The notes beneath the pieces were generated by a model, which worked only from the letters and a program-made list of their open reading frames with translations, did no database searches and was not told the DNA's origin. From Escherichia coli (GTDB lineage Bacteria; Pseudomonadota; Gammaproteobacteria; Enterobacterales; Enterobacteriaceae): a stretch of 64,000 nucleotides of DNA. The position numbers were made by a program, and so were the translations under genes. Each line of letters opens with the position of its first letter. Position 1 is the stretch's first letter. Location: NCBI RefSeq assembly GCF_024223415.1, contig NZ_CP100500.1; one strand, written 5' to 3'. Below are positions 19,852 to 57,191 of this stretch, one piece after another.

Positions 19852-19852
19852 A

Positions 19853-21660: not shown

Positions 21661-21837
21661 GCGGCAAAAACTCAACCGTTTTTCATAAGGAAATCAGCAA
21701 TCGCACCGATCGTTTTCCCGCCTGGTAATGAATATTGGCGAGCACATTAACAGGCGGGAAAGTGGCCCCAGCGTCCTGGCACCACGGGCGAGAATAATCA
21801 TGATTCAGTTCGAGTAAAATATGCCGATCCGCTCAGT

Positions 21838-21896: not shown

Positions 21897-21937
21897 GTTC
21901 CGTACATTTTCTGCTCGTTAATCAGGAGGAACGAACT

Positions 21938-22411
21938 ATGTCAGAAAATGAACTGAAAAAAGCAATGTTCATTCAGCAACGATTGCAGATTCTCCACCTT
22001 GGTAAACACTATGATGAGTTCAGTGATTCTTACGTGTATGCCTGGGAGGCAGATGTTTATCCTTTCTTGCAGGATGGCGACGGAAGTATTCCTGCTCGCC
22101 CACATGAAATTTACGAAGAGTTTTTCGGCACATCTAAAAACAAAGCCAAAAAGATATACGATCGTCTGTGCAAAGCCTGGCACGACCAGGAGGCACTCAC
22201 ATTCTATAAACTAGAAAGTGAATATGGTGTAACAAGTAGCAGCATGCACAGATGGACACGAAGTGATTTACTTCACATCTGCCGCTATCTGTATCTTGAG
22301 GGGTGTTTCGATAAAGATTTCTGGGAAACATTACTGGAAAACGGAAAATGCCCAAGCGAAGCACTTTACCTTAGCGATGAATTTAATCGCGATACAGAGA
22401 TCGACTTCTAA
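21938..22411 (+). CDS. Hypothetical protein (157 aa), stand-alone opposite-strand cargo gene
   Basis: Strong SD and promoter, own bidirectional terminator; only plus-strand gene inside the structural/regulatory part of the island; no recognisable domain. Confidence 0.65.
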   Translation: MSENELKKAMFIQQRLQILHLGKHYDEFSDSYVYAWEADVYPFLQDGDGSIPARPHEIYEEFFGTSKNKAKKIYDRLCKAWHDQEALTFYKLESEYGVTSSSMHRWTRSDLLHICRYLYLEGCFDKDFWETLLENGKCPSEALYLSDEFNRDTEIDF

Positions 22412-22448
22412 AAAAATGGCCTGGAAAATACCAGGCCATTATTATTCT
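22411..22448. terminator. Bidirectional intrinsic terminator between convergent genes
   Basis: atggcctgg-aaaata-ccaggccat flanked by an A-run on one side and T-rich sequence on the other. Confidence 0.55.
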
Positions 22449-22695
22449 ACCGTTTCACGGGATCACGCATTCTGCGCCTTATTTTCCACAGATATTCGAT
22501 CATCGCTTCCACCTGCTCACGGTTGGTTGCGAAAATTTCCCCGGTCAGTGAGCTACGCAGAAAATCATGATGATCCACAAAAAATAACGCATCGGAAGAA
22601 AGCAGCCGGAGATATTTTTTTGCTGTCGTGCTTTCCAGATCATCAAAATCATGAAGCTTTTTATGTTGCTGGACTTCTTCAAATGTCACTGGCAT
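22447..22695 (-). CDS. Hypothetical protein (about 82 aa)
   Basis: Internal ATG (MPVTFEEVQQHKKLHDF...) downstream of the PerC-like gene. Confidence 0.45.
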   Translation of the reverse strand: MPVTFEEVQQHKKLHDFDDLESTTAKKYLRLLSSDALFFVDHHDFLRSSLTGEIFATNREQVEAMIEYLWKIRRRMRDPVKR

Positions 22696-22740
22696 GTTTC
22701 CTCCTGCTACCACGATACCAGAAACAGTTAACAACCGTTA

Positions 22741-23022
22741 TCAATTATCCCCTTTTTTAGGGTAGTTCCTGAACATCTCACCGCCAGGCTTCTGTAAGCC
22801 CATCCCGGTATGTGTGCGGTTTATGGCCTCTTTCAGTATTCCGAAATTATCCGGTATGACTGGTGGGCGTGCTGCCTTACGGATACATTCCGCGCGACGC
22901 TTTGCCACTTGTTCGCGCTCCTTGTCAGTGCTCACCAGCCACATAACATCAGCCCATCGCGCGGCCGCCCTCCGGTAAAATCCTTTCGCCTCCAGTTCCT
23001 CCGCTATCCGGTCATGTACCAT
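22741..23022 (-). CDS. PerC-family-like transcriptional regulator (tentative)
   Basis: About 93 aa from internal ATG: MVHDRIAEELEAKGFYRRAAARWADVMW...; the EAxGxxRRAAxxW motif resembles PerC-type activators. Confidence 0.4.
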   Translation of the reverse strand: MVHDRIAEELEAKGFYRRAAARWADVMWLVSTDKEREQVAKRRAECIRKAARPPVIPDNFGILKEAINRTHTGMGLQKPGGEMFRNYPKKGDN

Positions 23023-23032
23023 CGTCACCCCC

Positions 23033-23443
23033 TCAGAACGGAATATCATCACCGTAAGGGTCATCGCCTCCCGCTGGTGGCTGATTACCCTGTGTGCCTG
23101 TGGTTTTGCGTCTGTTCCCACCAGGACGTGCCGCACGCGCACTGATTACGCTGTCTGCGATAACCTGCCAGCCCTGCCGCGTTTCCCCGTTCTGTCCGGT
23201 CCACTGGCTGACCTGCATCGTGCCGGATACGCTGGCAACGTCGCCTTTTTGATGTTTAGCCAGAAAGTCGGCCTGTTTGCCAAATGCGATGACCGATAAC
23301 CATAACGTCGCCTGTCCGTCCTGTGCCTGGCCGCATGGTAAAGATACCGCCATACGCGCCAGCGTCATCGGTGTACCCTTACTGGTCTGTTTTACCTGCG
23401 GGTCGTCCACCAGCCGCCCGTAAGCTGCAATTTGTGCTGTCAT
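23033..23443 (-). CDS. ssb: Single-stranded DNA-binding protein
   Basis: 136 aa with OB-fold-like core and acidic C-terminal tail ending DDIPF. Confidence 0.85.
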   Translation of the reverse strand: MTAQIAAYGRLVDDPQVKQTSKGTPMTLARMAVSLPCGQAQDGQATLWLSVIAFGKQADFLAKHQKGDVASVSGTMQVSQWTGQNGETRQGWQVIADSVISARAARPGGNRRKTTGTQGNQPPAGGDDPYGDDIPF

Positions 23444-23452
23444 ATTGCCACC

Positions 23453-23758
23453 TCAGTGAAGCGATCCGGCGTTGTTCTTTTTCATCTCTTCCATCATTTT
23501 TTCAGTGAGCATTACGCACTGAAAACCCATGTTTTTGATGTCTACGGGTTTCATGCCTTTGTCAGTGGATATCACAGGCAGAATATCCTGATACACATCG
23601 CCGCCAGGGTAACTAAGCACACAAAGCGCCCATGATGCCACGGGTGAGGATCCTTGGTCTGTTTCAACCCACCAGCCTGGTGTAGCTGCGCTTATTTGCA
23701 GAATCGTGATCCGTCCGTTGTGCTTGTAAAATTTTTCACCACATTTTGGTTCGCTCAT
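23453..23758 (-). CDS. Hypothetical protein (101 aa)
   Basis: ORF in operon context between ssb and the ori region. Confidence 0.4.
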   Translation of the reverse strand: MSEPKCGEKFYKHNGRITILQISAATPGWWVETDQGSSPVASWALCVLSYPGGDVYQDILPVISTDKGMKPVDIKNMGFQCVMLTEKMMEEMKKNNAGSLH

Positions 23759-24006
23759 GCTTCCACCTCTCCGGTTTTAACGTTGATGGTTGTCACCTGT
23801 TCCGCTCCGGCAATCTCCCGTTCTGTCAGCGTGGCAAAATTTGCCGCTACCGTTGTCATGAATGCGCTTATCAGTTCGGGATGTGCTTTCGCGTATCCTT
23901 CTCCCGCGTGGCGGTCTATCGTTCTGATTGCCACCTTTAAGGCGTGCTCTGTCATGTCTAACGCTTTATATTTTGGCGCTGTCTTATCTCTGGTTTTTCT
24001 GTTCAT
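23755..24006 (-). CDS. Hypothetical protein (start uncertain)
   Basis: ORF 23755-24036 trimmed to an internal ATG because its 5' end runs into the iteron array. Confidence 0.3.
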   Translation of the reverse strand: MNRKTRDKTAPKYKALDMTEHALKVAIRTIDRHAGEGYAKAHPELISAFMTTVAANFATLTEREIAGAEQVTTINVKTGEVEA

Positions 24007-24225
24007 TCCCCACCACTCCCCACTTTTGCTCCCCACTTTTTAAATTCCCCACTTGCTCCCCACCTCGTTTTTTGAGTGAATCTAATGCTTTGTTTTTCAT
24101 TGCGTTTTTTGCTCCCCACTTTTTTGGATGTATACAGGTGGGAAAGTGGGGAATTATGTTTCAATTTTGTTAAATTCCCCACTCTCCCCACTTTTACTAC
24201 CCACTTTTTACAGTGGGTAAACATC
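24005..24225. repeat. Iteron array (at least 8 copies of tccccactttt-like units in both orientations around an AT-rich core); putative replication origin
   Basis: Repeats ctccccactttt, gctccccacttttt, attccccact and inverted gtgggaaagtgggg, immediately 3' of the primase/helicase gene. Confidence 0.6.
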
Positions 24226-25614
24226 ATCCCCATCGACACAAATCACGCCGTCTTTTTCCAGCTTGTACAGCCAGCGCCGGAAGTGCTTCATCTCATACCC
24301 CAGCTTTTTCATATCGTCGCGGAGAAGGGCGATAGTGCATGGCTCTTTGTGTGCCGTCCGCGTTCTGATGCACTGCCATAGCGCGGCGTGATTCTCCGAT
24401 TTGTTGCCTGCTTCCTCGATGCGCTCCAGTTCAGCAGGGGCGCGGGGAACGTCAATCACCACCATAGACACAATCTCTTCGCCATCTGTATCGGTGAACA
24501 CCTCCACGCTTTTAAGGTCGTATGCACTCTCTTTTGGCTCCTCTGCGTCCTTCATCTTCGTACACGCCGCCACCAGTGCTGTAACGTCTGAATTTTCCCG
24601 GCTGATTCGGTACTCTGCATCAAGCGCGGCACGGAATGCGCTGGAACCACGCGCCCCCTTTGTTTCATCCTTGCCGGAATGGTGAACCACCAGCACCGTG
24701 GCCCCTGTGGCCTGCTTTATCGCGTCACACCCCTGGATAAATGCGCCCATATCACGGGAATCATTTTCATCATTCCCACCAAAGCAACGGGCCAGTGTGT
24801 CGATCACAATCAGCCGCACATTTTCGCCCGTTCTGCTCTTAACAAGTCCGGCAGTCCTGATAACCTGCTCCACATAGTCAGGCGATGCAGGGAAAACAGG
24901 CGCGTTAATGATGCACAAATCTGTAACCACCTTGTCGTGGGTTATCTCCCACGCCTTAACGCGGCGTTTTACGCCCATGCTGCCTTCACCAGCGATATAG
25001 ATAACCGCCCCCTTACTTACCCTGCGGCCTCCCCATGCCATACCTGTGGCAACATGGCACGACCAGGAAATGGCGAGGAACGATTTATAAGAACCGCTGG
25101 CCCCGTAGGTGCTGCATAATGACTCAGCCGGAATAAGCCCCTTAATTACGTAGCTTTGCTGCGCGTCGAATCCCTCAGAACCCCATGAGATGGGAAGCGT
25201 GATTTTTCGCTTTCCGCCATTCATGACCAGGCTTTCCCCTCTCTCCCATGTTTCCCGTAGTCGTGGTAGCTGGTCGCTCCAGTCCTCCAGCAGTTCGAAA
25301 TTTTCAGAAAGTAGCCGCGCCTCCTGGACTCCGGCGATCGCCAGTTTTGTGGCAATGGTCAGCATCTGCATATCGTCCAGGTTTCCGGCGCGTATGACCT
25401 TTGCCCTGTATCGTCCTTCATCAACAATCTGTAAGTTGTCCAGTTCGCTTAACTGATAACGGCCCAGGTAAACCGGAGGGATGGGATCGCCTGCTTTTTT
25501 GGCCTGTGCAATCATGTAATGTTCTGCAAAGGAGTGAGCATTATCACCCGCAAAAATAACCGCCTCAGTGTGTTTATCTTTCGGTAACAGTTTTACGTTC
25601 GGTGCAAGTTTCAT
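24208..25614 (-). CDS. Replication protein: primase-like N-terminus plus RecA/DnaB-like AAA ATPase (pri-rep)
   Basis: 468 aa; Walker A-like IYIAGEGSMGVKRR and Walker B-like LIVIDTLARCFG, C-terminal winged-helix-like tail. Confidence 0.75.
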   Translation of the reverse strand: MKLAPNVKLLPKDKHTEAVIFAGDNAHSFAEHYMIAQAKKAGDPIPPVYLGRYQLSELDNLQIVDEGRYRAKVIRAGNLDDMQMLTIATKLAIAGVQEARLLSENFELLEDWSDQLPRLRETWERGESLVMNGGKRKITLPISWGSEGFDAQQSYVIKGLIPAESLCSTYGASGSYKSFLAISWSCHVATGMAWGGRRVSKGAVIYIAGEGSMGVKRRVKAWEITHDKVVTDLCIINAPVFPASPDYVEQVIRTAGLVKSRTGENVRLIVIDTLARCFGGNDENDSRDMGAFIQGCDAIKQATGATVLVVHHSGKDETKGARGSSAFRAALDAEYRISRENSDVTALVAACTKMKDAEEPKESAYDLKSVEVFTDTDGEEIVSMVVIDVPRAPAELERIEEAGNKSENHAALWQCIRTRTAHKEPCTIALLRDDMKKLGYEMKHFRRWLYKLEKDGVICVDGDDVYPL

Positions 25615-25898
25615 TTCTTACCCCCTGCGACCAGCATTTCACGGATTTTGCGGATATAACTTGCAGCACGTTTCTGATTAACGGCTTTACGATGGCCCAC
25701 CAGCGTGAAATCACGCCGGAACTGATAAACAGGCATAACGCAGTCATATTCGTAGCCTTCACGGCGGTAAGTTACGCGACGTTCCTCCACGCTTTTAATT
25801 GTTACCGTGCCGCCGTAGTTATCTTTGAAAATATCGCCGGGGCGGATTTCAGGCCGAGCGGGGCCGCTGGCAGTAAAGCCAGAATATTTAAGTTTCAT
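25611..25898 (-). CDS. Hypothetical protein (95 aa)
   Basis: Stop overlaps the pri-rep start; basic protein. Confidence 0.4.
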   Translation of the reverse strand: MKLKYSGFTASGPARPEIRPGDIFKDNYGGTVTIKSVEERRVTYRREGYEYDCVMPVYQFRRDFTLVGHRKAVNQKRAASYIRKIREMLVAGGKK

Positions 25899-25903
25899 TA
25901 TTT

Positions 25904-26137
25904 TTATTCTCCGGTGTGCTGTTCTTTATATCTGTCGTGCAATAGGTCTATTTCCTGCAACTCTGTTATTACAGGTTCAAGGAGAGTTATCAGAGATTTA
26001 ATAATCCGCGCATTCTTTACATCACGCTCATTATCGCCAAATGTATCTGGATACATTTGCAATATTTCGTACATACCTTCAGCGTAAGCAATGGCACTAA
26101 ATGCGCGGTCTATTGTTTCGAGGTAAATATCACGCAT
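25904..26137 (-). CDS. Hypothetical protein (77 aa)
   Basis: Compactly spaced ORF in the same operon. Confidence 0.4.
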   Translation of the reverse strand: MRDIYLETIDRAFSAIAYAEGMYEILQMYPDTFGDNERDVKNARIIKSLITLLEPVITELQEIDLLHDRYKEQHTGE

Positions 26138-26138
26138 A

Positions 26139-26387
26139 TTAATCCCCGTCCGTCGTTTTTCTTAAAATAACCTCTGTCACGAAATCAGCATAATCGGCGG
26201 CGATATTCAGTACATCAAGCCCCGTTGATTTATATTCTCTCGTGGAAAGTAAGAAAAAAGCCGCTCTAATAAGCTCTGGCATTGACGAAAGCGCATCAGC
26301 CGCATCATCAGGAACGCCGGAAAATTCCTGTTTCAGGGAATTAAAACGATCATCACGCATAACCCCCCCCATTTTCACAATCAGCAA
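26139..26387 (-). CDS. Hypothetical protein (82 aa)
   Basis: Compactly spaced ORF in the same operon. Confidence 0.35.
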   Translation of the reverse strand: MLIVKMGGVMRDDRFNSLKQEFSGVPDDAADALSSMPELIRAAFFLLSTREYKSTGLDVLNIAADYADFVTEVILRKTTDGD

Positions 26388-26634
26388 TCAGGATGGCTTT
26401 GGCCTCATTCAGTGCCATATCAGCGGTAAGCTGTGCGTAGGCCAGCAAATGCGGGATTATTGCCCCTGTATATTCCGTCTCTCTGGTAATGTGTTTTTCT
26501 GCGGTTGCTGCCGTGCATGAAATATCAATCAGCGCGTGCATCAGCGTTTTGATGGCTTCGGCGGCTGCGTCCGGACGGGTGTTATTGCACATGGCACACC
26601 TCCTGACGGATACGGGCGGCGAATACAGCGACAC
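26353..26634 (-). CDS. Hypothetical protein (start uncertain)
   Basis: ORF overlapping its neighbours; probable start at an internal ATG. Confidence 0.3.
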   Translation of the reverse strand: MSLYSPPVSVRRCAMCNNTRPDAAAEAIKTLMHALIDISCTAATAEKHITRETEYTGAIIPHLLAYAQLTADMALNEAKAILIADCENGGGYA

Positions 26635-26780
26635 AACCGGACGGGCAACGGTTACGCGCTTCGCGTTCCGTCCAGGCGGTCACGTGGATAATTTGAGATT
26701 CTCCGGCACTCAGTGCCAGAAAACGCCACACAAAGGCGGTTTGTGTGTGCGCTAGTCGTGGGGTATGCTGTGTTCCAGCC
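26582..26780 (-). CDS. Hypothetical small protein (about 66 aa), first gene of the leftward early operon
   Basis: C-terminal part of spurious 267-aa ORF, from ATG near 26780: MAGTQHTPRLAHTQTAFVWRF...; divergent from the RHH gene. Confidence 0.35.
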
Positions 26781-26867
26781 ATAATCGTTACTCCTGTTAA
26801 CGGTTTGGTTAGACGCCCTGCATGTGTTACAGCACTGCGGGGCGTTGTCTTTTTAACGGCTTTCGTG

Positions 26868-26917
26868 ATAGGGTGTACACCTATCAAGCAAAAAAATAAC
26901 GCTATAGGTGTACACAT
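26868..26917. promoter_or_regulatory. Two operator-like palindromes centred on GTGTACAC in the divergent regulatory region
   Basis: atagggtgtacacctat (26868-26884) and tataggtgtacacat (26903-26917); the second overlaps the RHH start codon. Confidence 0.45.
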
Positions 26918-27110
26918 GTCAACAGTTATTAAGCGAGATAAAAAACCAAAGGGAACAGGAAAAGCCCCCCCATTCCATATGCGAATAGCTCCAGAACTGA
27001 AAGAGCAGTTTGATAATGAGGCCAGCAATGATGGGGTAAGCCTAGCCAACTGGCTTAAAGAGTTGGGACGCAGTGAACTGAAGCGGCGCGGTATAGAACC
27101 CAAAGGTTGA
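26916..27110 (+). CDS. Ribbon-helix-helix (Arc/MetJ-like) DNA-binding protein; candidate island repressor
   Basis: About 64 aa from internal ATG: MSTVIKRDKKPKGTGKAPPFHMRIAPELKEQFDNEASNDGVSLANWLKELG; only regulator on the plus strand, divergent from the early operon. Confidence 0.5.
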   Translation: MSTVIKRDKKPKGTGKAPPFHMRIAPELKEQFDNEASNDGVSLANWLKELGRSELKRRGIEPKG

Positions 27111-27143
27111 TAGCCCACCAGCAAGCCAGGACACTGATCACAT

Positions 27144-27171
27144 TGGCCACCGTGACAGGTGGCCTTTTCTT
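27144..27171 (+). terminator. Intrinsic terminator after the RHH gene
   Basis: ggccacc-gtgaca-ggtggcc followed by ttttcttt. Confidence 0.5.
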
Positions 27172-27437
27172 TGCCCGTTATCCGGCAATTGTGGCGCTTC
27201 GCCACACGGTTGATATAATCCCACTGCTCATATTCATTTTTTGCGCAGCAGGTAAATTGTTCAGAAAGGCGGCTCCTTATCGGGGCCGCTTTTTTTATGC
27301 CTGAAAAACCGCGATTTTGTTGTTTTTCAGTTTCACAAGGCCGAACGAAGCCCCGCCCCTGTTCCGGCGTATATCCAGTCTTCATGGTTAAATCTCTGTA
27401 TTAGTGGATGGGTGGCGGCTGTGTGCCGCCAGTCTTT

Positions 27438-27626
27438 TTAGTGAACTGCCTCGCAGCTTTCCTTCCATGCCAGAACTTCGGATAAAGACCAGCCAACGGA
27501 ACGACCGCCCAGCTTACGCCGTGATGGGAATTGTCCGGCCTTTTCCAGGCGGTAGCGGCATGAGCGGCTAAGCCCTGTTAGCTTTTCGCATTCTTTTTCA
27601 CGTATAAAACGATCAGTGCTTAACAC
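27438..27626 (-). CDS. alpA: AlpA-family phage transcriptional regulator / excisionase-like
   Basis: 62 aa, LTGLSRSCRYRLEKAGQFPSRRKLGGRSVGWSLSEVLAW matches the AlpA/Xis HTH pattern; adjacent to int. Confidence 0.75.
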   Translation of the reverse strand: MLSTDRFIREKECEKLTGLSRSCRYRLEKAGQFPSRRKLGGRSVGWSLSEVLAWKESCEAVH

Positions 27627-27908
27627 TATTGCCCCCTTTCGTTTCTTAAAGAGTTATTTCGTGTTCTATTGCGTTGGTATGTGTCTGATTGTGTCAGGGT
27701 GATTCAGAGTTGGCAAATGTTGATGGCGGGTATTTTACAGAAACGGGGTGATTTTAATAAAAAACATTTTAATTCAGTATTATGCAAAGGCATAAAATCT
27801 CGTTTCATGCCTTTTTTCTCACTATTTAAAGCGTTATTCGCTAATGTATAAAAAACCAGTTGAGCATTAAAAATCAGCAACTTATAAATCTGTATATTTT
27901 TTGGCCTC

Positions 27909-27954
27909 TTGTTCGTGGTTGTTTCACGTTGTTGCGTATTGTTGCACGTTGTAT
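27909..27954 (-). promoter_or_regulatory. Five 10-bp-phased direct repeats (TTGTT on plus strand = AACAA on minus) between int and alpA
   Basis: TTGT motifs start at 27909, 27919, 27929, 27939, 27949. Confidence 0.5.
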
Positions 27955-28000
27955 CTGTGCACTTATCCAGTATGCGCATACTGAAAAAACACGAAAAAAA

Positions 28001-29248
28001 TTATTTTCTTCTGGCTACTGGTAGCGTGGTTACGTTTTCATGTGCTCCCGCCAGTATCTCCAACCGCTCCACCCACATATCCAGCGCATTGCGTTTCGCA
28101 TCCAGATAACGGGAATGATTATAAACTCGCTGCATTCCTGGCATCTGGTGGCCTGTAAGCTGCTCCACGACATGCGGATCAACGCCTAAATCGTTCAGCA
28201 TGGTTGTAAAGGTGCGCCGGATGTCATGCAGTGACCAGTGAGGGTGTTTAAGCCTCCTGTGCACTAATCTGCCGTACTGCGACACGCTGGTTTCCTGTTT
28301 CACTTCCCCCAGCAATAAGTCCGTGTGCCTGTTCTGCTCCACCAGCTGCGTGACGAACGGCAGTATCGCTTCCGGTATGGGCCGGAATATGGCTACCTTC
28401 GTTTTGCTGTGCTCCTTCGGAACGGTCCAGAGCATTTCGGTAAAATCCCACTCGCCGATCTCCGATAACCTCAGTTCTACTGTCCTGCATCCGAAGACAA
28501 TCAGGAGGCGGATTAGTGCGACGTAGTAAGGGGAAAATATTTTTTTGTCCAGTGCCTGCAATAATTCGCCAAGTTCTTTGTTACTTAAGACACGCTGACT
28601 TATATCCGGTTTTTTCCCAACGTCAGCCACACTCATATCATCAAGAACGTTGCTGATTGCATAGCGCCGCTTCCGGCAGAACTTAAGCGCCTGTTTGCAT
28701 GTCTGTAGCAGGAACCCGGCGGAAACAGGGGCTTGCTTTGCCACCCGATCAAAACAGGCCAGCCAGTGCCGTAGCTCGCATTTATCCAGCGGCATAGGGC
28801 CAATGTGCTGTATTACGTGATTATTTAGCCGCTTTTTCAGTGGGTCATAATCCACACGGTTTTCCTTTGCGTACGACTCAAGCCAGTAGGTGAGCGCATC
28901 GCCAACCGTTACAGGCTTTAACGCTTCCTGTACGGTGTAATTCATCTCATGACGTGGATTTTTCCCCTCAGCCAGCCATGCGCGACACTGGGCGGCTTTT
29001 TCCCTGGCTGATTTCAGGCTCAGATCAGGATAATTTCCCAGCTTAATGCGTTCCGGTGGTGCGCCCCTTCCCGTTCCGGCCCTGTAAGTGAAATACCAGG
29101 TTAAAAGGCCGCTGGTTGAATGCCTGACGGTCAGGTTTCCACCGTCATTAAGAAAGGCTGTTTTTTGGGCGGGTGTGCCGTTGATTTTCCTTAGCTGTGT
29201 ATCACTCAGTTTGTTAAGTGCTCTGCGCATAATTTTGATTCCGGTCAT
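28001..29248 (-). CDS. int: Tyrosine-type site-specific integrase (P4-like)
   Basis: About 415 aa; N-terminal arm-binding-like region, catalytic HDIRRTF...HQMPGMQRVYNHSRY; start codon (GTG 29251 or ATG 29248/29230) abuts the 26-bp repeat. Confidence 0.9.
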   Translation of the reverse strand: MTGIKIMRRALNKLSDTQLRKINGTPAQKTAFLNDGGNLTVRHSTSGLLTWYFTYRAGTGRGAPPERIKLGNYPDLSLKSAREKAAQCRAWLAEGKNPRHEMNYTVQEALKPVTVGDALTYWLESYAKENRVDYDPLKKRLNNHVIQHIGPMPLDKCELRHWLACFDRVAKQAPVSAGFLLQTCKQALKFCRKRRYAISNVLDDMSVADVGKKPDISQRVLSNKELGELLQALDKKIFSPYYVALIRLLIVFGCRTVELRLSEIGEWDFTEMLWTVPKEHSKTKVAIFRPIPEAILPFVTQLVEQNRHTDLLLGEVKQETSVSQYGRLVHRRLKHPHWSLHDIRRTFTTMLNDLGVDPHVVEQLTGHQMPGMQRVYNHSRYLDAKRNALDMWVERLEILAGAHENVTTLPVARRK

Positions 29249-29251
29249 CAC

Positions 29252-29277
29252 AATTAACTACACCATTAACTACACCG
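29252..29277. repeat. Inner 26-bp direct repeat, right copy
   Basis: Exact match to 14122-14147. Confidence 0.8.
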
Positions 29278-29283
29278 ATCGTT

Positions 29284-29319
29284 GCACAAAGGGCTACAAC
29301 GTGAAACAAGCTGGAACAA
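29284..29319 (+). promoter_or_regulatory. 10-bp-phased NNACAA repeats (GCACAA, CTACAA, AAACAA, GAACAA) upstream of int on the opposite strand
   Basis: Motifs start at 29284, 29294, 29304, 29314; homologous to the array at 14164-14189. Confidence 0.4.
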
Positions 29320-29399
29320 GAAAAATCACAAATTTGTTTATAATCAAAAACATAATGCACAATCTGAAACATTATGAAACGGCAAAAAACACTAATTGA

Positions 29400-29411
29400 T
29401 AAAATATGTCC
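29400..29411. repeat. Right copy of short direct repeat taaaatatgtcc; candidate attR core
   Basis: Matches the sequence at the phoQ stop codon (14039-14049). Confidence 0.5.
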
Positions 29412-37968: not shown

Positions 37969-41217
<3,249 letters not shown>

Positions 41218-41367
41218 TCAATCGGCTAAATTGCCATGTTTTATCATCAATCTTGCCGCCTGATCTTAATCTGAAAAATCATCCAATACAGACAGATACC
41301 CATTACACCTCGGGTCATAACCCGCAGGATCAACCGCATGTAAATTAAAAAAGAGCGTGTTGTCCTG

Positions 41368-42441
41368 ATGAAACAAAAAGAGCTATGGATTAACCAGATC
41401 AAAGGGTTATGTATTTGTCTGGTCGTGATTTATCACTCGGTAATTACCTTTTATCCGCATATGACCACTTTTCAGCATCCGTTATCGGAAGTCCTGAGCA
41501 AATGCTGGATCTATTTCAATCTTTACCTTGCACCCTTTCGTATGCCGGTTTTTTTCTTTATTTCCGGCTATTTGATTCGCCGCTATATCGACAGCGTGCC
41601 GTGGGGAAATTGTCTCGATAAACGCATCTGGAGCATCTTCTGGGTGCTGGCGCTTTGGGGCATTGTCCAGTGGCTGGCGTTAAGTGCGCTGAATCAGTGG
41701 CTGGCACCTGAGCGCGATTTAAACAATGCCTCCAATGCTGCTTATGCCGATTCCACCGGTGAGTTCCTGCACGGGATGATCACCGCCAGCACCAGCTTGT
41801 GGTATCTGTATGCGTTAATTGTCTATTTCGTGGTATGTAAAATTTTTAGCCGTCTGGCGCTGCCACTATTCGCCTTGTTTGTACTGCTGAGTGTGGCGGT
41901 TAATTTCGTTCCCACGCCGTGGTGGGGAATGAACAGTGTGATCCGCAATTTGCCTTATTACAGCCTTGGCGCATGGTTTGGCGCAACAATAATGACCTGT
42001 GTTAAAGAGGTGCCGTTGCGCCGCCATCTGCTGATGGCTTCTTTGCTTACCGTTCTGGCGGTCGGTGCCTGGTTGTTTACTATCTCGCTGCTGTTGTCGC
42101 TGGTATCGATTGTGGTGATCATGAAGCTGTTTTATCAATACGAGCAACGATTCGGTATGCGCTCCACCAGCCTGCTGAATGTGATTGGCTCCAACACCAT
42201 TGCTATCTACACCACCCATCGCATTCTGGTTGAAATATTCAGCTTAACTCTGCTTGCGCAAATGAACGCAGCACGCTGGTCGCCGCAAGTCGAACTGACA
42301 CTCCTGCTGGTTTATCCCTTTGTCAGTTTGTTCATCTGTACTGTTGCGGGCTTGCTGGTGAGAAAACTTTCACAGCGTGCATTCAGCGATCTGTTGTTCT
42401 CCCCGCCTTCACTGCCCGCTGCCGTCAGTTACTCCCGCTAA
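41368..42441 (+). CDS. ycfT: Inner membrane protein YcfT (acyltransferase-3-like)
   Basis: 357 aa, multi-TM. Confidence 0.7.
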   Translation: MKQKELWINQIKGLCICLVVIYHSVITFYPHMTTFQHPLSEVLSKCWIYFNLYLAPFRMPVFFFISGYLIRRYIDSVPWGNCLDKRIWSIFWVLALWGIVQWLALSALNQWLAPERDLNNASNAAYADSTGEFLHGMITASTSLWYLYALIVYFVVCKIFSRLALPLFALFVLLSVAVNFVPTPWWGMNSVIRNLPYYSLGAWFGATIMTCVKEVPLRRHLLMASLLTVLAVGAWLFTISLLLSLVSIVVIMKLFYQYEQRFGMRSTSLLNVIGSNTIAIYTTHRILVEIFSLTLLAQMNAARWSPQVELTLLLVYPFVSLFICTVAGLLVRKLSQRAFSDLLFSPPSLPAAVSYSR

Positions 42442-42568
42442 GCCATCGCCCCAGCCGGGGCGATTCAATTTGCTAAACCATGTCGATTACGGATAATGAA
42501 CAGCATTGCTTATCAGAGATATGCCCCCATATGTTGAGGCATATCCTAACGAGAATCTGACAACCGTT

Positions 42569-45500
42569 ATGCCTGAACAATATCGTTATACGCTGCCCGT
42601 CAAAGCGGGTGAGCAGCGTCTGCTGGGCGAGTTAACCGGCGCTGCCTGCGCGACGCTGGTGGCGGAAATTGCCGAACGTCACGCCGGTCCGGTGGTACTC
42701 ATTGCACCAGATATGCAAAATGCCCTGCGTTTGCATGATGAAATCAGCCAGTTCACCGATCAGATGGTGATGAATCTGGCGGACTGGGAAACCCTCCCTT
42801 ACGACAGTTTTTCGCCTCATCAGGACATTATCTCCTCGCGCCTTTCCACCCTTTACCAGCTACCGACGATGCAGCGTGGCGTACTGATTGTTCCGGTGAA
42901 TACGCTTATGCAGCGCGTTTGCCCACACAGTTTTCTCCACGGTCATGCGCTGGTGATGAAAAAAGGTCAGCGCCTGTCACGAGATGCATTACGAACCCAA
43001 TTGGACAGCGCCGGTTATCGCCATGTTAACCAGGTGATGGAACACGGCGAATACGCCACGCGCGGCGCGTTGCTGGATCTCTTCCCGATGGGGAGTGAGC
43101 TACCTTATCGTCTTGATTTCTTTGATGATGAAATCGACAGTCTGCGGGTGTTTGACGTCGACAGCCAGCGCACGCTGGAGGAAGTAGAAGCGATCAATCT
43201 GTTGCCTGCGCACGAATTTCCGACCGATAAAGCGGCGATTGAACTGTTCCGCAGCCAGTGGCGCGATACCTTCGAAGTGAAGCGCGACCCGGAACATATT
43301 TATCAGCAAGTGAGTAAAGGCACATTACCTGCCGGGATCGAGTACTGGCAGCCGCTATTCTTCAGCGAACCACTGCCGCCACTGTTCAGTTATTTTCCTG
43401 CCAATACGCTGCTGGTGAATACTGGCGATCTGGAAAACAGTGCCGAACGTTTTCAGGCAGATACGCTGGCGCGTTTTGAGAATCGCGGCGTCGATCCGAT
43501 GCGCCCACTGTTGCCACCACAATCGCTCTGGCTGCGGGTGGACGAGCTCTTCTCAGAGCTGAAAAACTGGCCGCGGGTGCAGCTAAAAACTGAACATTTA
43601 CCGACAAAAGCCGCGAATGCCAATTTAGGTTTCCAGAAACTGCCAGACCTGGCCGTTCAGGCACAACAAAAAGCGCCGTTGGATGCGCTGCGTAAGTTCC
43701 TCGAGACTTTCGATGGTCCGGTGGTGTTCTCGGTAGAAAGTGAAGGTCGCCGTGAAGCGCTGGGTGAACTGCTCGCGCGAATTAAAATTGCTCCGCAACG
43801 CATTATGCGTCTTGATGAAGCCAGCGACCGTGGGCGTTATCTGATGATTGGCGCTGCCGAACATGGTTTTGTCGATAAGGTGCGTAACCTGGCGCTGATT
43901 TGCGAAAGCGATCTGCTCGGTGAACGCGTTGCCCGCCGTCGTCAGGACTCTCGCCGCACCATCAACCCCGATACACTGATCCGCAACCTCGCGGAGCTGC
44001 ATATTGGTCAGCCGGTAGTCCATCTGGAGCACGGCGTCGGTCGTTATGCCGGAATGACCACGCTGGAAGCTGGCGGCATTACTGGCGAGTACCTGATGCT
44101 CACCTATGCCAACGACGCCAAACTGTATGTTCCGGTGTCGTCACTGCATCTGATTAGCCGTTACGCAGGTGGCGCGGAAGAAAACGCCCCGCTGCATAAA
44201 CTTGGCGGTGATGCGTGGTCACGCGCGCGGCAGAAAGCGGCGGAAAAAGTGCGTGATGTGGCGGCGGAATTGCTGGATATCTACGCGCAACGCGCCGCCA
44301 AAGAGGGCTTCGCGTTTAAACACGATCGTGAGCAGTATCAGTTGTTCTGCGACAGCTTCCCGTTTGAAACCACGCCGGATCAGGCTCAAGCCATTAATGC
44401 GGTGCTTAGCGACATGTGTCAGCCGCTGGCAATGGATCGTCTGGTGTGCGGCGATGTTGGCTTTGGTAAAACAGAAGTGGCGATGCGCGCCGCTTTCCTG
44501 GCAGTAGATAACCATAAGCAGGTGGCGGTGCTGGTGCCTACCACCCTTCTCGCGCAGCAGCATTACGACAACTTCCGCGACCGTTTCGCCAACTGGCCGG
44601 TACGTATCGAAATGATCTCCCGTTTCCGCAGCGCCAAAGAGCAGACGCAAATCCTTGCGGAAGTGGCGGAAGGGAAAATCGATATTCTGATCGGTACGCA
44701 CAAACTGCTGCAAAGTGACGTCAAGTTTAAAGATTTAGGCCTGCTGATTGTCGATGAAGAACACCGCTTCGGGGTGCGTCATAAAGAGCGCATTAAAGCG
44801 ATGCGCGCGAACGTGGATATTCTGACGCTTACTGCAACGCCGATCCCACGTACGCTGAATATGGCAATGAGCGGAATGCGTGACCTGTCGATTATCGCCA
44901 CGCCGCCCGCCCGTCGTCTGGCAGTTAAAACCTTTGTCCGTGAGTACGATAGTCTGGTGGTTCGGGAGGCGATCCTGCGTGAAATTTTGCGCGGGGGGCA
45001 GGTTTATTATCTCTACAATGATGTGGAAAACATCCAGAAAGCCGCCGAACGGCTGGCAGAACTGGTGCCAGAAGCGCGGATCGCCATCGGTCACGGGCAG
45101 ATGCGCGAGCGCGAACTGGAACGGGTGATGAATGATTTCCATCATCAACGTTTCAACGTGCTGGTTTGTACAACCATTATCGAAACCGGGATCGACATCC
45201 CGACAGCCAACACCATTATCATTGAACGCGCGGATCACTTCGGTCTGGCGCAGCTGCACCAGTTACGCGGTCGCGTCGGACGTTCGCATCATCAGGCATA
45301 TGCATGGTTGCTGACACCGCATCCAAAAGCGATGACTACCGATGCACAAAAACGTCTTGAAGCAATTGCCTCGCTGGAAGATCTCGGTGCAGGTTTTGCG
45401 CTGGCAACGCACGATCTGGAGATTCGCGGCGCGGGTGAACTGCTTGGCGAAGAACAAAGCGGCTCAATGGAAACCATCGGTTTCTCGCTGTATATGGAGT

Positions 45501-46015
45501 TGCTGGAAAACGCCGTCGATGCACTGAAAGCCGGACGCGAGCCGTCGCTGGAAGATCTCACCAGCCAGCAAACAGAAGTCGAGCTGCGGATGCCGTCGCT
45601 ATTGCCAGATGATTTCATTCCTGACGTGAATACGCGTTTGTCGTTCTACAAACGTATTACCAGCGCCAAAACGGAAAACGAACTGGAAGAGATCAAAGTC
45701 GAGCTTATCGATCGCTTCGGCCTGCTGCCGGATCCGGCGCGTACCCTGCTGGATATTGCCCGTCTGCGCCAACAAGCGCAGAAACTGGGGATCAGGAAGC
45801 TGGAAGGTAATGAGAAAGGCGGGGTGATCGAATTTGCCGAGAAGAATCACGTTAATCCGGCCTGGTTGATTGGTTTGCTGCAAAAACAGCCGCAGCATTA
45901 CCGCCTTGATGGTCCGACGCGCCTGAAATTTATTCAGGATTTGAGCGAGCGGAAAACGCGTATCGAATGGGTTCGCCAGTTTATGCGTGAACTGGAAGAG
46001 AACGCGATCGCTTAA
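42569..46015 (+). CDS. mfd: Transcription-repair coupling factor Mfd
   Basis: 1148 aa from internal ATG, MPEQYRYTLPVKAGEQRLLGEL...; helicase motifs GDVGFGKTEV and DEEHRFG. Confidence 0.95.
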   Translation: MPEQYRYTLPVKAGEQRLLGELTGAACATLVAEIAERHAGPVVLIAPDMQNALRLHDEISQFTDQMVMNLADWETLPYDSFSPHQDIISSRLSTLYQLPTMQRGVLIVPVNTLMQRVCPHSFLHGHALVMKKGQRLSRDALRTQLDSAGYRHVNQVMEHGEYATRGALLDLFPMGSELPYRLDFFDDEIDSLRVFDVDSQRTLEEVEAINLLPAHEFPTDKAAIELFRSQWRDTFEVKRDPEHIYQQVSKGTLPAGIEYWQPLFFSEPLPPLFSYFPANTLLVNTGDLENSAERFQADTLARFENRGVDPMRPLLPPQSLWLRVDELFSELKNWPRVQLKTEHLPTKAANANLGFQKLPDLAVQAQQKAPLDALRKFLETFDGPVVFSVESEGRREALGELLARIKIAPQRIMRLDEASDRGRYLMIGAAEHGFVDKVRNLALICESDLLGERVARRRQDSRRTINPDTLIRNLAELHIGQPVVHLEHGVGRYAGMTTLEAGGITGEYLMLTYANDAKLYVPVSSLHLISRYAGGAEENAPLHKLGGDAWSRARQKAAEKVRDVAAELLDIYAQRAAKEGFAFKHDREQYQLFCDSFPFETTPDQAQAINAVLSDMCQPLAMDRLVCGDVGFGKTEVAMRAAFLAVDNHKQVAVLVPTTLLAQQHYDNFRDRFANWPVRIEMISRFRSAKEQTQILAEVAEGKIDILIGTHKLLQSDVKFKDLGLLIVDEEHRFGVRHKERIKAMRANVDILTLTATPIPRTLNMAMSGMRDLSIIATPPARRLAVKTFVREYDSLVVREAILREILRGGQVYYLYNDVENIQKAAERLAELVPEARIAIGHGQMRERELERVMNDFHHQRFNVLVCTTIIETGIDIPTANTIIIERADHFGLAQLHQLRGRVGRSHHQAYAWLLTPHPKAMTTDAQKRLEAIASLEDLGAGFALATHDLEIRGAGELLGEEQSGSMETIGFSLYMELLENAVDALKAGREPSLEDLTSQQTEVELRMPSLLPDDFIPDVNTRLSFYKRITSAKTENELEEIKVELIDRFGLLPDPARTLLDIARLRQQAQKLGIRKLEGNEKGGVIEFAEKNHVNPAWLIGLLQKQPQHYRLDGPTRLKFIQDLSERKTRIEWVRQFMRELEENAIA

Positions 46016-46156
46016 GGTAAATCGGGGGCGTTTCTGCGCCCCATCTACAACATTTACAAATTCTTTGCACTTCCCTGCACTATCCGACACTGTCACCATC
46101 CATAATTCAGGCTTATCTGTTTATTACAATAACCTTATATTTATTATGGATTTTTG

Positions 46157-47119
46157 GTGATGATCAAAACGCGTTTTTCTCGCTGGCTAACGTTTTTTAC
46201 GTTCGCCGCTGCCGTGGCGCTGGCGCTACCGGCAAAAGCCAACACCTGGCCGCTGCCGCCAGCGGGCAGTCGTCTGGTTGGCGAAAACAAATTTCATGTG
46301 GTGGAAAATGACGGTGGTTCTCTGGAAGCCATCGCCAAAAAATATAACGTCGGCTTTCTCGCTCTATTACAGGCTAACCCCGGCGTTGATCCTTACGTAC
46401 CGCGCGCGGGCAGCGTGTTAACGATCCCGTTGCAAACCCTACTTCCAGACGCGCCGCGCGAAGGCATTGTGATCAACATTGCGGAGCTTCGTCTCTATTA
46501 CTACCCGCCGGGTAAAAATTCGGTAACCGTGTATCCAATAGGTATTGGTCAGTTAGGTGGTGACACGCTGACACCGACAATGGTGACCACCGTTTCTGAC
46601 AAGCGTGCAAACCCAACCTGGACGCCAACGGCAAACATCCGAGCCCGTTATAAAGCACAGGGAATTGAGTTGCCTGCGGTGGTTCCGGCTGGACCGGATA
46701 ACCCAATGGGCCATCATGCGATTCGTCTGGCGGCCTATGGCGGCGTTTATTTGCTTCATGGTACGAACGCCGATTTCGGCATTGGCATGCGGGTAAGTTC
46801 TGGCTGTATTCGTCTGCGGGATGACGATATCAAAACACTCTTTAGCCAGGTCACCCCAGGCACCAAAGTGAATATCATCAACACTCCGATAAAAGTCTCT
46901 GCCGAACCAAACGGTGCGCGTCTGGTTGAAGTACATCAGCCGCTGTCAGAGAAGATTGATGACGATCCGCAGCTGCTGCCAATTACGCTGAATAGCGCAA
47001 TGCAATCATTTAAAAATGCAGCACAAACTGACGCTGAAGTGATGCAACATGTGATGGATGTCCGTTCCGGGATGCCGGTGGATGTCCGCCGTCATCAAGT
47101 GAGCCCACAAACTCTGTAA
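46157..47119 (+). CDS. ldtC: L,D-transpeptidase LdtC (YcfS)
   Basis: About 320 aa with signal peptide; YkuD-type catalytic motif (HGT...SSGCIRL). Confidence 0.8.
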   Translation: MMIKTRFSRWLTFFTFAAAVALALPAKANTWPLPPAGSRLVGENKFHVVENDGGSLEAIAKKYNVGFLALLQANPGVDPYVPRAGSVLTIPLQTLLPDAPREGIVINIAELRLYYYPPGKNSVTVYPIGIGQLGGDTLTPTMVTTVSDKRANPTWTPTANIRARYKAQGIELPAVVPAGPDNPMGHHAIRLAAYGGVYLLHGTNADFGIGMRVSSGCIRLRDDDIKTLFSQVTPGTKVNIINTPIKVSAEPNGARLVEVHQPLSEKIDDDPQLLPITLNSAMQSFKNAAQTDAEVMQHVMDVRSGMPVDVRRHQVSPQTL

Positions 47120-47201
47120 ATCCTGGATAAAAAAAATCCCCGCGACACGGCATGTCGCGGGGAAAAAATCAGCAGTAGCAGGCATTAATGAGGGTTAATG
47201 C

Positions 47202-47459
47202 TTATTTATAAATTACTGCTGTTCCATGGAGGGTATTCGGACCGGTTACAGAAGTAATACGGAAAGATTTTGCGCCCATCTCATCCGCTTTTTGCGCCAG
47301 CTGCTCTTCCAGCGATCCCAGATTTGTCCCCGCGTTAGCACTGATTGTACCGACTTTTTGTTGGCCTTCTGGCGTTGACTGAACTTCGACAGCCGCAAAG
47401 CTGGCAAATGACATGGAGCTTAAAATCGCCGCAGCGATGAGGGTTTTTACGTTTTTCAT
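47202..47459 (-). CDS. bhsA: Multiple stress resistance protein BhsA (YcfR)
   Basis: 85 aa with signal peptide, YdgH/BhsA family. Confidence 0.8.
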   Translation of the reverse strand: MKNVKTLIAAAILSSMSFASFAAVEVQSTPEGQQKVGTISANAGTNLGSLEEQLAQKADEMGAKSFRITSVTGPNTLHGTAVIYK

Positions 47460-47699
47460 AATAGTGGCCTTATGCAGATGAATGACGTCGCAAGCAATTA
47501 CTTAACGATCGATAACTAAATGATAGATGTGATCTGGATCACATACAAGATATTTTTTATAACAATCATTAATTAATTTAAAAATCTTTAAATTTCAGTT
47601 AAATAGAAAGCAATTATTTTTATGGGATCTGGACTGGTGAACGGAGGTGATTATTTTTATAATAACCTTTCATTCACAGTCACCAGGTACAACGGCATC

Positions 47700-48332
47700 A
47701 TGGCAACTGACTCAACACAATGTGTAAAAAAAAGCCGTGGCCGCCCAAAAGTGTTCGACAGGGATGCCGCGCTTGATAAGGCCATGAAATTGTTCTGGCA
47801 ACACGGTTATGAAGCGACTTCTCTTGCGGACCTCGTCGAAGCGACCGGAGCCAAAGCGCCCACGCTATACGCGGAATTTACCAACAAAGAGGGGTTATTT
47901 CGTGCCGTTCTCGACCGCTATATCGATCGTTTTGCCGCTAAGCATGAAGCACAGCTGTTTTGTGAAGAGAAAAGCGTGGAGTCTGCGCTGGCTGACTATT
48001 TTGCTGCCATCGCCAACTGCTTTACCGGCAAAGACACCCCGGCAGGCTGCTTCATGATCAACAACTGCACCACCCTCTCCCCAGATTCAGGAGATATCGC
48101 CAATACGTTGAAATCACGCCATGCGATGCAAGAGCGCACTTTGCAGCAGTTTTTATGTCAACGACAAGCGCGCGGGGAAATCCCGACCCACTGTGACGTG
48201 ACACATCTGGCAGAATTCCTTAATTGTATTATTCAGGGGATGTCGATCAGCGCACGCGAAGGTGCATCGCTGGAAAAACTGATGCAGATTGCCGGAACGA
48301 CTTTGCGTTTATGGCCCGAACTGGTGAAATAA
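47700..48332 (+). CDS. comR: TetR-family repressor ComR (YcfQ)
   Basis: 210 aa from internal ATG, MATDSTQCVKKSRGRPKVFDRDAALDKAMKLFWQHGYEATSLADL (TetR HTH). Confidence 0.75.
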   Translation: MATDSTQCVKKSRGRPKVFDRDAALDKAMKLFWQHGYEATSLADLVEATGAKAPTLYAEFTNKEGLFRAVLDRYIDRFAAKHEAQLFCEEKSVESALADYFAAIANCFTGKDTPAGCFMINNCTTLSPDSGDIANTLKSRHAMQERTLQQFLCQRQARGEIPTHCDVTHLAEFLNCIIQGMSISAREGASLEKLMQIAGTTLRLWPELVK

Positions 48333-48393
48333 GTCGCAAAAAAAGCCCCTCAGCCTGAGCGAATGAGGGGCCAAATTGCAGAGTACAGCCTTG

Positions 48394-48934
48394 TTATACT
48401 TTGTTATTCAAAATCAGTTGCCCGTTACTATCTAGCGGGATCTGCGTACCCGGATCGCGGTCCATGCGGATTTTGCCCTGCTGATCGCCAATCTTATAGG
48501 TCACATCATAACCGAGCATTTTTTCTGACTTGTCATACACCGTTTTACAACGCTGTTGCGTAGTCGTGTAAGTATCGCTTTCCTGGAGAGAGCCCTGGAT
48601 CTGGTTACCGGCATATCCCCCCCCCCAGCGCCCCCACAACAGTGGCGACATCTTTACCACGACCACCACCAAACTGATGCCCTATCACGCCGCCAGCAAC
48701 AGCGCCGAGCACCGACCCGGTAATGCGATTTTCATCCTGCACCGGTCGACGATGGGTCACTGTGACGTTGCGACACTCCTGACGCGGTGTTTTAACCGTT
48801 TCCTTGATTGGGGTTGCAGAAACAACCTGAGCGTATTGCGGGCCACGTTCAAACACGTTCAGACTGGCCACTGCCGCTACGCCAAGCGCAGCTGCGACAC
48901 CAATCCCGATACCCGCCAACATTGATTTATTCAC
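48394..48934 (-). pseudogene. ycfJ: ycfJ interrupted by a frameshift at a C10 homopolymer (48617-48626)
   Basis: ORFs 48605-48973 and 48394-48672 overlap and together reconstruct one YcfJ-like protein, joining at GALGGG/YAGNQIQ; span is one nucleotide longer than an in-frame gene. Confidence 0.7.
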
Positions 48935-49059
48935 GGGAATACCTCCTTCTTTGCAGTTATGCCAATCATGCAAGCGAAGGAGAAAAGCAGCTATCAGACA
49001 GAAGATGAAAAGCGCGGGAATGGCTGGAAATACTTAAGGATTCGGAGGAGTCTGAAGGA

Positions 49060-49160
49060 ATGCCTGATGCGACGCTTAACGCGTCTTATCAGGCCTACCG
49101 CTCGTACCATTTGTCCAGGGCGGATGAGGCGTTTATGCCACATCCGCCAGTGTACGTCGA
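49060..49160. repeat. REP/BIME cluster between ycfJ and ndh
   Basis: gcctgatgcgacgcttaacgcgtcttatcaggcctac plus a second hairpin ggcggatgaggcgtttatgccacatccgcc. Confidence 0.65.
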
Positions 49161-54998: not shown

Positions 54999-57191
54999 AT
55001 GCTTTCAACACAATTTAACAGGGATAATCAATATCAAGCCATCACCAAACCGTCACTACTTGCCGGTTGCATAGCATTGGCACTATTACCTTCTGCCGCT
55101 TTTGCTGCACCAGCCACTGAAGAAACGGTGATTGTTGAGGGTTCAGCCACAGCTCCAGATGATGGCGAAAATGATTACAGCGTAACGTCTACCTCTGCGG
55201 GTACCAAAATGCAGATGACTCAACGTGATATTCCTCAGTCGGTCACTATTGTTAGCCAGCAGCGGATGGAAGATCAGCAGTTACAAACGCTGGGCGAAGT
55301 GATGGAAAACACGCTGGGGATCAGCAAAAGTCAGGCGGATTCCGATCGTGCTCTTTATTATTCCCGCGGATTCCAGATCGATAACTATATGGTTGATGGT
55401 ATCCCCACCTATTTTGAATCGCGCTGGAATCTGGGCGACGCACTTTCTGATATGGCACTGTTTGAACGCGTAGAAGTAGTGCGTGGCGCGACAGGACTCA
55501 TGACCGGGACGGGTAATCCATCTGCGGCAATTAATATGGTTCGAAAACACGCGACCAGTCGTGAATTTAAAGGCGATGTCTCGGCGGAATACGGTAGCTG
55601 GAACAAAGAACGGTATGTGGCGGATTTACAAAGCCCACTCACCGAAGACGGTAAAATCCGCGCGCGAATTGTCGGCGGCTACCAGAATAACGACTCATGG
55701 CTGGACCGCTACAATAGTGAAAAGACCTTCTTCTCCGGCATTGTCGATGCTGATTTAGGCGATCTTACGACGCTTTCAGCCGGTTACGAATATCAGCGCA
55801 TTGATGTTAATAGCCCAACCTGGGGCGGTTTACCGCGCTGGAATACTGATGGCAGCAGCAACAGTTACGATCGCGCACGCAGTACCGCACCTGACTGGGC
55901 GTACAACGATAAAGAGATCAACAAGGTCTTTATGACCCTGAAGCAGCGGTTTGCTGATACCTGGCAAGCGACACTGAATGCCACCCACTCTGAAGTCGAA
56001 TTTGACAGCAAAATGATGTATGTCGATGCCTATGTAAACAAAGCGGATGGTATGCTGGTTGGGCCATACAGTAATTATGGACCTGGCTTTGATTATGTCG
56101 GCGGCACCGGTTGGAACAGTGGCAAACGTAAAGTTGATGCGCTGGATTTGTTCGCTGACGGTAGTTATGAATTGTTTGGTCGTCAGCACAATCTAATGTT
56201 TGGTGGCAGTTACAGCAAACAAAACAATCGTTACTTCAGTTCATGGGCCAACATCTTCCCGGATGAAATTGGCAATTTCTACAACTTTAATGGCAATTTC
56301 CCACAAACCGACTGGTCACCACAGAGCCTGGCGCAGGACGATACCACACATATGAAATCGTTATATGCTGCCACTCGTGTCACCCTTGCCGATCCGCTGC
56401 ATCTGATCCTCGGCGCACGTTATACCAACTGGCGGGTTGATACGCTGACTTACAGCATGGAGAAAAACCACACCACGCCTTACGCTGGTCTGGTGTTTGA
56501 CATCAATGACAACTGGTCGACCTACGCCAGCTATACCTCTATTTTCCAGCCGCAAAATGATCGTGACAGTTCAGGCAAATATCTGGCTCCAATCACCGGT
56601 AACAACTACGAGCTGGGTCTGAAATCGGACTGGATGAATAGCCGTCTGACCACCACGTTAGCCATCTTCCGTATTGAGCAGGATAATGTCGCTCAGTCCA
56701 CCGGTACACCTATCCCCGGCAGCAACGGCGAAACCGCCTATAAAGCGGTGGATGGGACAGTCAGTAAAGGTGTGGAATTTGAACTCAACGGCGCAATTAC
56801 CGACAACTGGCAGCTGACATTTGGCGCAACGCGCTATATTGCAGAGGATAACGAAGGAAACGCCGTTAATCCTAATCTGCCTCGCACCACGGTTAAAATG
56901 TTCACCAGCTACCGGTTGCCTGTCATGCCAGAGTTGACGGTCGGCGGTGGTGTTAACTGGCAAAATCGCGTGTATACCGACACCGTGACACCGTATGGCA
57001 CCTTCCGCGCCGAGCAAGGTAGCTACGCGCTGGTGGATCTCTTCACCCGCTACCAGGTGACGAAAAACTTCTCGTTACAGGGAACGTCAATAACCTGTTC
57101 GACAAAACCTACGATACCAACGTGGAAGGTTCTATCGTCTACGGCGCACCGCGTAATTTCAGCATTACCGGCACGTATCAATTCTGAATAA
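54999..57191 (+). CDS. fhuE: TonB-dependent ferric coprogen/rhodotorulic acid receptor FhuE, with a -1 frameshift about 35 codons before the normal end
   Basis: 730-aa ORF; after ...VTKNFSLQG the frame changes near 57081, while the adjacent frame encodes NVNNLFDKTYDTNVEGSIVYGAPRNFSITGTYQF-stop. Confidence 0.85.
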   Translation: MLSTQFNRDNQYQAITKPSLLAGCIALALLPSAAFAAPATEETVIVEGSATAPDDGENDYSVTSTSAGTKMQMTQRDIPQSVTIVSQQRMEDQQLQTLGEVMENTLGISKSQADSDRALYYSRGFQIDNYMVDGIPTYFESRWNLGDALSDMALFERVEVVRGATGLMTGTGNPSAAINMVRKHATSREFKGDVSAEYGSWNKERYVADLQSPLTEDGKIRARIVGGYQNNDSWLDRYNSEKTFFSGIVDADLGDLTTLSAGYEYQRIDVNSPTWGGLPRWNTDGSSNSYDRARSTAPDWAYNDKEINKVFMTLKQRFADTWQATLNATHSEVEFDSKMMYVDAYVNKADGMLVGPYSNYGPGFDYVGGTGWNSGKRKVDALDLFADGSYELFGRQHNLMFGGSYSKQNNRYFSSWANIFPDEIGNFYNFNGNFPQTDWSPQSLAQDDTTHMKSLYAATRVTLADPLHLILGARYTNWRVDTLTYSMEKNHTTPYAGLVFDINDNWSTYASYTSIFQPQNDRDSSGKYLAPITGNNYELGLKSDWMNSRLTTTLAIFRIEQDNVAQSTGTPIPGSNGETAYKAVDGTVSKGVEFELNGAITDNWQLTFGATRYIAEDNEGNAVNPNLPRTTVKMFTSYRLPVMPELTVGGGVNWQNRVYTDTVTPYGTFRAEQGSYALVDLFTRYQVTKNFSLQGTSITCSTKPTIPTWKVLSSTAHRVISALPARINSE

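Follow-up and report, generated by a model that had tools for sequence, protein, structure and literature searches.

In the stretch of Escherichia coli chromosome analysed here (64 kb, referred to as the window), the envelope protein gene ycfJ is broken into two overlapping reading frames at a run of ten C's. The question raised by this locus is whether the tenth C was inherited by the clone, was added during sequencing, or belongs to an arrangement with a use of its own, such as a reversible switch or a recoding site. Taken together, the comparisons described below favour a genuine, heritable +1 slipped-strand insertion in ycfJ of this clone (G9 to G10 in gene sense), to which a probability of about 0.7 is given.

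The ycfJ gene and its two fragments

Genes along the window follow the order pdeG...icd...phoPQ...potABCD...mfd...ycfJ...fabF. ycfJ lies between ndh and comR, in the synteny ndh-ycfJ-comR-bhsA found in all relatives compared, and starts at the annotated GTG at 48934, with an AAGGAGG Shine-Dalgarno sequence upstream. Once one C is removed from the tract, a 540-nt ORF results that encodes exactly the 179-aa YcfJ WP_001043459.1 (P0001), the protein annotated in the four nearest intact genomes and in K-12-like strains. The repaired protein consists of an N-terminal hydrophobic anchor, a glycine-zipper domain (Pfam PF05433, Rick_17kDa_Anti; 43.7 bits over residues 73–113, the curated cut-off being 24.2 bits) and a C-terminal half without a Pfam match. 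Sequence identity and the shared neighbourhood identify the gene as the ycfJ orthologue. The gene is found in 5,425 of 5,426 complete E. coli genomes, with best matches of 600 nt against the window's 601. Reference E. coli YcfJ (b1110, YCFJ_ECOLI) shares with the window its locus, its PF05433 domain and residues 1–106 and 104–179; the window differs in having one extra G on the coding strand, which splits the ORF.

Table 1. Positions in the window of the features discussed (strand relative to the window)
Feature	Position	Strand	Description
ycfJ	48394..48934	-	541 nt versus 540 normally; +1 frameshift; glycine-zipper 2TM envelope protein gene
C10 run (G10 in gene sense)	48617..48626	-	Putative slippage tract; the lineage's in-frame length is 9 (CTG GGG GGG GGA)
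5' fragment ORF	48605..48934	-	109 aa: YcfJ residues 1–106, then ICR-stop (P0016)
3' fragment ORF	48394..48651	-	85 aa, from an internal ATG; YcfJ residues 104–179 (P0036)
G5 run (GTGGGGGCG in gene sense)	48631..48635	-	Unbroken in the window; just upstream of the glycine codons
fhuE	54999-57191	+	Clone-private -1, GGGG to GGG at 57079-57082

An earlier note on this DNA had placed a 10-C homopolymer here and proposed that two minus-strand ORFs rebuild a single YcfJ. Both descriptions hold. Ten consecutive C's are counted at the tract, and the ORFs at 48605..48973 and 48394..48672, which overlap exactly at 48605–48672, supply residues 1–106 and 104–179 with the junction at GALGGG/YAGNQ. The 109-aa fragment retains the hydrophobic anchor at the N-terminus and the greater part of the glycine zipper, and PF05433 still scores 34.0 bits; the last zipper residues and the entire C-terminal half (residues 107–179) are missing. 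In the 85-aa 3' fragment neither an export signal nor a Pfam match was found, so this fragment is probably inert and not functional alone.

When tract length was varied in simulation, 9 restored the intact protein, 6 and 12 gave in-frame variants, and 10 and 8 gave products of 109 aa and 143 aa. No other G/C run in the window reaches 9; a C8 comes next. Two overlapping C9 matches, both from the ycfJ run, compare with a mean of 0.33 in shuffled sequence, and 5 of 100 shuffles reached 2.

Nearest genomes and the origin of the nine-base run

The window was compared over 34.6 kb with the five nearest complete genomes (SCU-316, KV7, O78 strain 3, GPEC1446 and NCTC10444), which lie 3 to 7 substitutions away from it. 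In SCU-316, KV7, O78 strain 3 and GPEC1446 the tract is C9 and ycfJ encodes the full 179 aa; no other ycfJ difference separates them from the window. Since these four nearest intact genomes carry C9 and an unbroken gene, the difference is read as a +1 insertion (C9 to C10) in the window. The earlier note had held that a one-base change at the tract breaks the frame, which is what this contrast gives, and had suggested comparing tract lengths in related genomes. The fifth relative, NCTC10444, has C8 (G8) at the tract on direct inspection, and its RefSeq ycfJ (EL041_RS14665) is annotated as 'frameshifted'. Its pseudogene shares lineage and tract with the window, and the length change likewise breaks the frame, but it is a G8 allele (-1) with a 143-aa product, whereas the window carries G10 (+1) and a 109-aa product. 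In the complete genomes Combat11I9 and NCTC9112, G8 was deduced from a match one base shorter. These G8 alleles of complete genomes may be homopolymer deletion errors, in which case the tract would be a proven target of sequencing error.

Several differences outside ycfJ were also seen among these genomes. Across window positions 1986–5807, SCU-316 departs from the window by ~40 indels and substitutions, many of them at CCWGG motifs and further ones in homopolymers; iraM, ycgX, bluR and bluF all carry a 'frameshifted' annotation in that genome. The other relatives compared over this region match the window, so the differences are taken as errors of the SCU-316 assembly. The 3' end of bluF (window 3300–3307) has A8 in the window and SCU-316 and A9 in KV7 and GPEC1446, which alters the length of BluF and its last few residues; the window version ends ...AWPEKK. 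Window-private SNPs number seven within 3.2 kb (2228–5421, the bluF to ycgX region) versus five in the other ~45 kb, and the cluster may be a small recombination patch.

The nine-base run itself is uncommon in E. coli. In K-12-like, O157:H7 and 55989 genomes, Gly104–106 are encoded by GGT GGT GGA, without a long run; GGG GGG GGA is confined to the window's lineage and a second haplotype (e.g. one ST131 strain). Tract types were counted as exact 89-mers among ~5,420 complete E. coli genomes. The K-12-type interrupted 89-mer (GGT GGT GGA) is present in 2,499 of them, the G9 89-mer of the window haplotype in 27 and that of the second haplotype in 12 (39 for both haplotypes together). Beyond E. 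coli, 75 enterobacterial species representatives keep the GALGGGYAGNQI motif; one, Escherichia sp. MOD1-EC7003, has G9, and the others have G-runs of at most 6. These counts mark the G9 run as a synonymous variant that is derived and restricted to certain lineages, not as a conserved feature of ycfJ.

A simple course of events can be proposed. In the lineage, two synonymous changes would have converted GGT GGT GGA to GGG GGG GGA, and the final G of the preceding CTG codon together with GGG GGG GGA would then have formed a run of nine G's. During replication, strand misalignment on this run may have added one G. Translation would leave the frame after Gly106 and meet a stop three codons on, giving a protein of 109 aa and, presumably, a null or severely impaired ycfJ allele. 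A pair of silent changes can in this way turn a Gly-Gly-Gly block into a fragile nine-base run that is then broken repeatedly.

Inherited insertion or homopolymer miscall

The predicted product of each tract length was looked up as an exact sequence in public contigs. The intact 179-aa protein, from G9 or the interrupted tract, is on at least 1,000 contigs. The 109-aa G10 product (P0016) is on 37 contigs (58 index blocks), and its 85-aa partner ORF (P0036) is likewise on 37 contigs. The 143-aa G8 product follows with 24 contigs, NCTC accessions included, and the remaining lengths are scarce: G7 (108 aa) on 5 contigs, G11 (144 aa) on 1 contig and the in-frame G6 (178 aa) on 1 contig. NCTC-type accessions carry both the G8 and the G7 products. 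Public databases already contain the exact ycfJ G10 allele. JGI metagenome contigs, scanned for G8–G11 alleles, returned zero matches and so give no frequency estimate.

The contigs with G10 come mostly from short-read-style assemblies, on backgrounds with 94.9%, ~97.5%, 99.6% and >99.9% identity to the window. Among genomes at least 99.9% identical, G8, G9 and G10 are all present, and real variation and sequencing error are confounded there. Within the window's near-clonal lineage, carriers of G10 are interspersed with G9 genomes in a star-like phylogeny, and over the 20 kb compared no SNP separates the two; an ndh SNP at 49581 that is common to two G10 assemblies is synonymous. As far as sequence comparison goes, this patchy pattern fits a hypermutable tract and recurrent miscalling equally well.

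The more serious of the competing explanations, although still an unlikely one, is that the true genome has C9 and an intact ycfJ, and that the tenth C is a homopolymer miscall arising from PCR stutter or from long-read consensus and polishing. Runs of 9–10 G or C are classic sites of sequencing error. The earlier note had warned that such homopolymers are prone both to slippage and to sequencing error, and the tract does draw off-length calls, G8 in NCTC10444 being one example. That 'frameshifted' G8 record and the NCTC-type accessions of the G8 and G7 products speak for a miscall, as do frameshifts in the same ycfJ stretch of long-read assemblies whose neighbouring genes are split. So does the distribution of G10 itself: with either tested flank haplotype it occurs in 0 of the ~5,420 complete RefSeq E. 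coli genomes, and it is scattered among near-identical genomes without a supporting SNP.

Evidence from raw reads weighs against a miscall. An independent assembler working on raw reads (Logan, SRR19977205) produced a sequence 100% identical to the window over 38521–49088 (10.6 kb), C10 included, which also carries the clone-private mfd SNP at 45659. SRR19977205 is perhaps the window's own read set, in which case the agreement excludes an assembler artefact and not one of the library or the sequencing. In exact look-ups of Mfd as a clone marker, the annotated 1148-aa form was not on record; the 1164-aa form matched SRR19977205 and SRR19977217 alone, and the contig from the latter ends before ycfJ. 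Several independent Logan contigs end at 49088–49090, upstream of ycfJ, in a palindromic REP-like stretch; this stretch between ycfJ and ndh (window about 49040–49140) is a repeat boundary for short-read assemblers.

A second private indel of the window, in fhuE, bears on how far its base calls can be trusted. The fhuE frameshift (Table 1) replaces the last 34 residues, the C-terminal ...TGTYQF motif among them, and the ferric-coprogen receptor FhuE is probably inactive; the gene also has a private S426N change. A 90-nt stretch around the indel has no full match in any complete RefSeq genome. The -1 allele is nevertheless reproduced in the Logan assemblies ERR3437215 (100% identical over 13.2 kb) and SRR19977217. 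Since a private indel recurs in two further read sets, the indel calls of the window appear trustworthy. Besides the ycfJ and fhuE indels and the shared bluF A8/A9 polymorphism, the window has no indel relative to its relatives over ~48 kb. An error-rich assembly of the window was considered and rejected, there being no excess of homopolymer indels compared with good relatives over the same ~48 kb. The general quality of the window thus argues against a miscall at ycfJ. It may be added that G10 is found mainly in short-read-style assemblies, and that a consensus +1 error in a 9-mer would be expected to be uncommon.

An inherited slippage mutation is accordingly judged more likely than a sequencing error, because the raw-read assembly gives C10 and the fhuE indel is reproduced in two read sets. 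The ycfJ and fhuE changes are two private homopolymer frameshifts within 35 kb, so that a past mutator episode in the clone is a possibility.

Possible switching or recoding, and the consequences of ycfJ loss

Some bacteria exploit tracts of this kind. In Neisseria, Haemophilus and Campylobacter, poly-G/C contingency loci undergo phase variation by slipped-strand mispairing, and such loci are typically recognised by a long poly-G run within the reading frame of an envelope protein. It is conceivable, if very improbable, that ycfJ has become an emergent contingency switch in the G9 lineages, flipping reversibly and at a high rate between ON (G9) and OFF (G8 or G10). The likeness lies in the run of 9–10 G's within an envelope-protein frame and in the presence of in-frame and out-of-frame lengths among close relatives, G8, G9 and G10 all occurring among near-identical genomes of the window's lineage. 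Variability could be useful because YcfJ is an Rcs-stress-induced envelope protein: a LolCDE inhibitor raises ycfJ 103- to 172-fold, placing it among the genes most strongly induced by envelope/Rcs stress (PMC5105897), and the Salmonella ycfJ promoter carries an RcsB site (PMC7913699).

The distribution of the tract speaks against a switch. Unlike the loci of those three genera, the ycfJ tract is rare and recently derived, with exact G9 89-mers in 27 + 12 of ~5,420 complete genomes compared with 2,499 for the interrupted K-12 type, and with G9 in a single one of the 75 species representatives. Out-of-frame alleles are a small minority, the intact protein being on at least 1,000 contigs as opposed to 37 for G10 and 24 for G8, and the off-length calls are themselves confounded with sequencing error. 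A conserved contingency locus, as distinct from an emergent one, is excluded because the tract is so rare. E. coli has efficient mismatch repair and is not known to make wide use of such phase-variation switches. If an emergent switch were nonetheless real, ycfJ would be a newly born contingency locus, in a species that is not known to rely on them.

Programmed recoding, in which ribosomal frameshifting or slippage during transcription would read through G10 and full-length YcfJ would still be made on purpose, is scarcely credible. Long homopolymers can give some RNA polymerase or ribosome slippage, and a small amount of full-length YcfJ could conceivably arise in that way. Conservation, however, is lacking: ycfJ is a single uninterrupted ORF in the four nearest intact genomes (540 nt) and in thousands of others, and the window differs from the intact allele by the extra base alone.

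The G9 to G10 change is in itself an unremarkable homopolymer frameshift, at a site prone to mutation and in a gene that can be dispensed with, and nothing of broader significance follows from it. ycfJ is a non-essential gene induced by Rcs/envelope stress. [quoted passage not shown] Given the stress induction and the biofilm-deficient null mutant in the literature, loss of ycfJ should show itself, if at all, in a slight phenotype of the envelope or of biofilm formation. A literature search for the ycfJ homopolymer or a ycfJ frameshift found no paper on either.

The neighbouring G5 run (Table 1) is the site of a second class of frameshift. In other E. coli lineages (L114-L121), an independent +1 change (G5 to G6) is found on a GGT GGT GGA background, with the products P0018/P0038. 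This class is represented by 205–208 contigs (275 index blocks). It is present in three clean, mutually identical draft assemblies and also in error-rich long-read assemblies whose neighbouring genes are split. Because this separate frameshift is carried on 205 contigs, loss of ycfJ is evidently tolerated, as judged from the sequence record. A change of another kind is seen in E. coli 2022CK-00450 (locus L029), in which an in-frame 12-nt duplication turns GSLQ into GSLQGSLQ and gives a 183-aa protein.

In public E. coli assemblies, 'frameshifted' calls arise again and again in this short part of ycfJ, some from real mutations and others from sequencing errors. In annotation, the gene of the window should be labelled a frameshifted ycfJ pseudogene, or the tract length should be re-checked; the two ORFs should not be entered as separate genes.

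Elsewhere in the window, a 15.35-kb insertion (14050–29401) lies between phoQ and roxA. The nearest complete genomes that were compared over this junction lack it, and a 10-bp direct repeat, AAATATGTCC, flanks it. Both a terminase large subunit and a portal protein are named in records that match the insertion, which is therefore probably a small prophage or a satellite.
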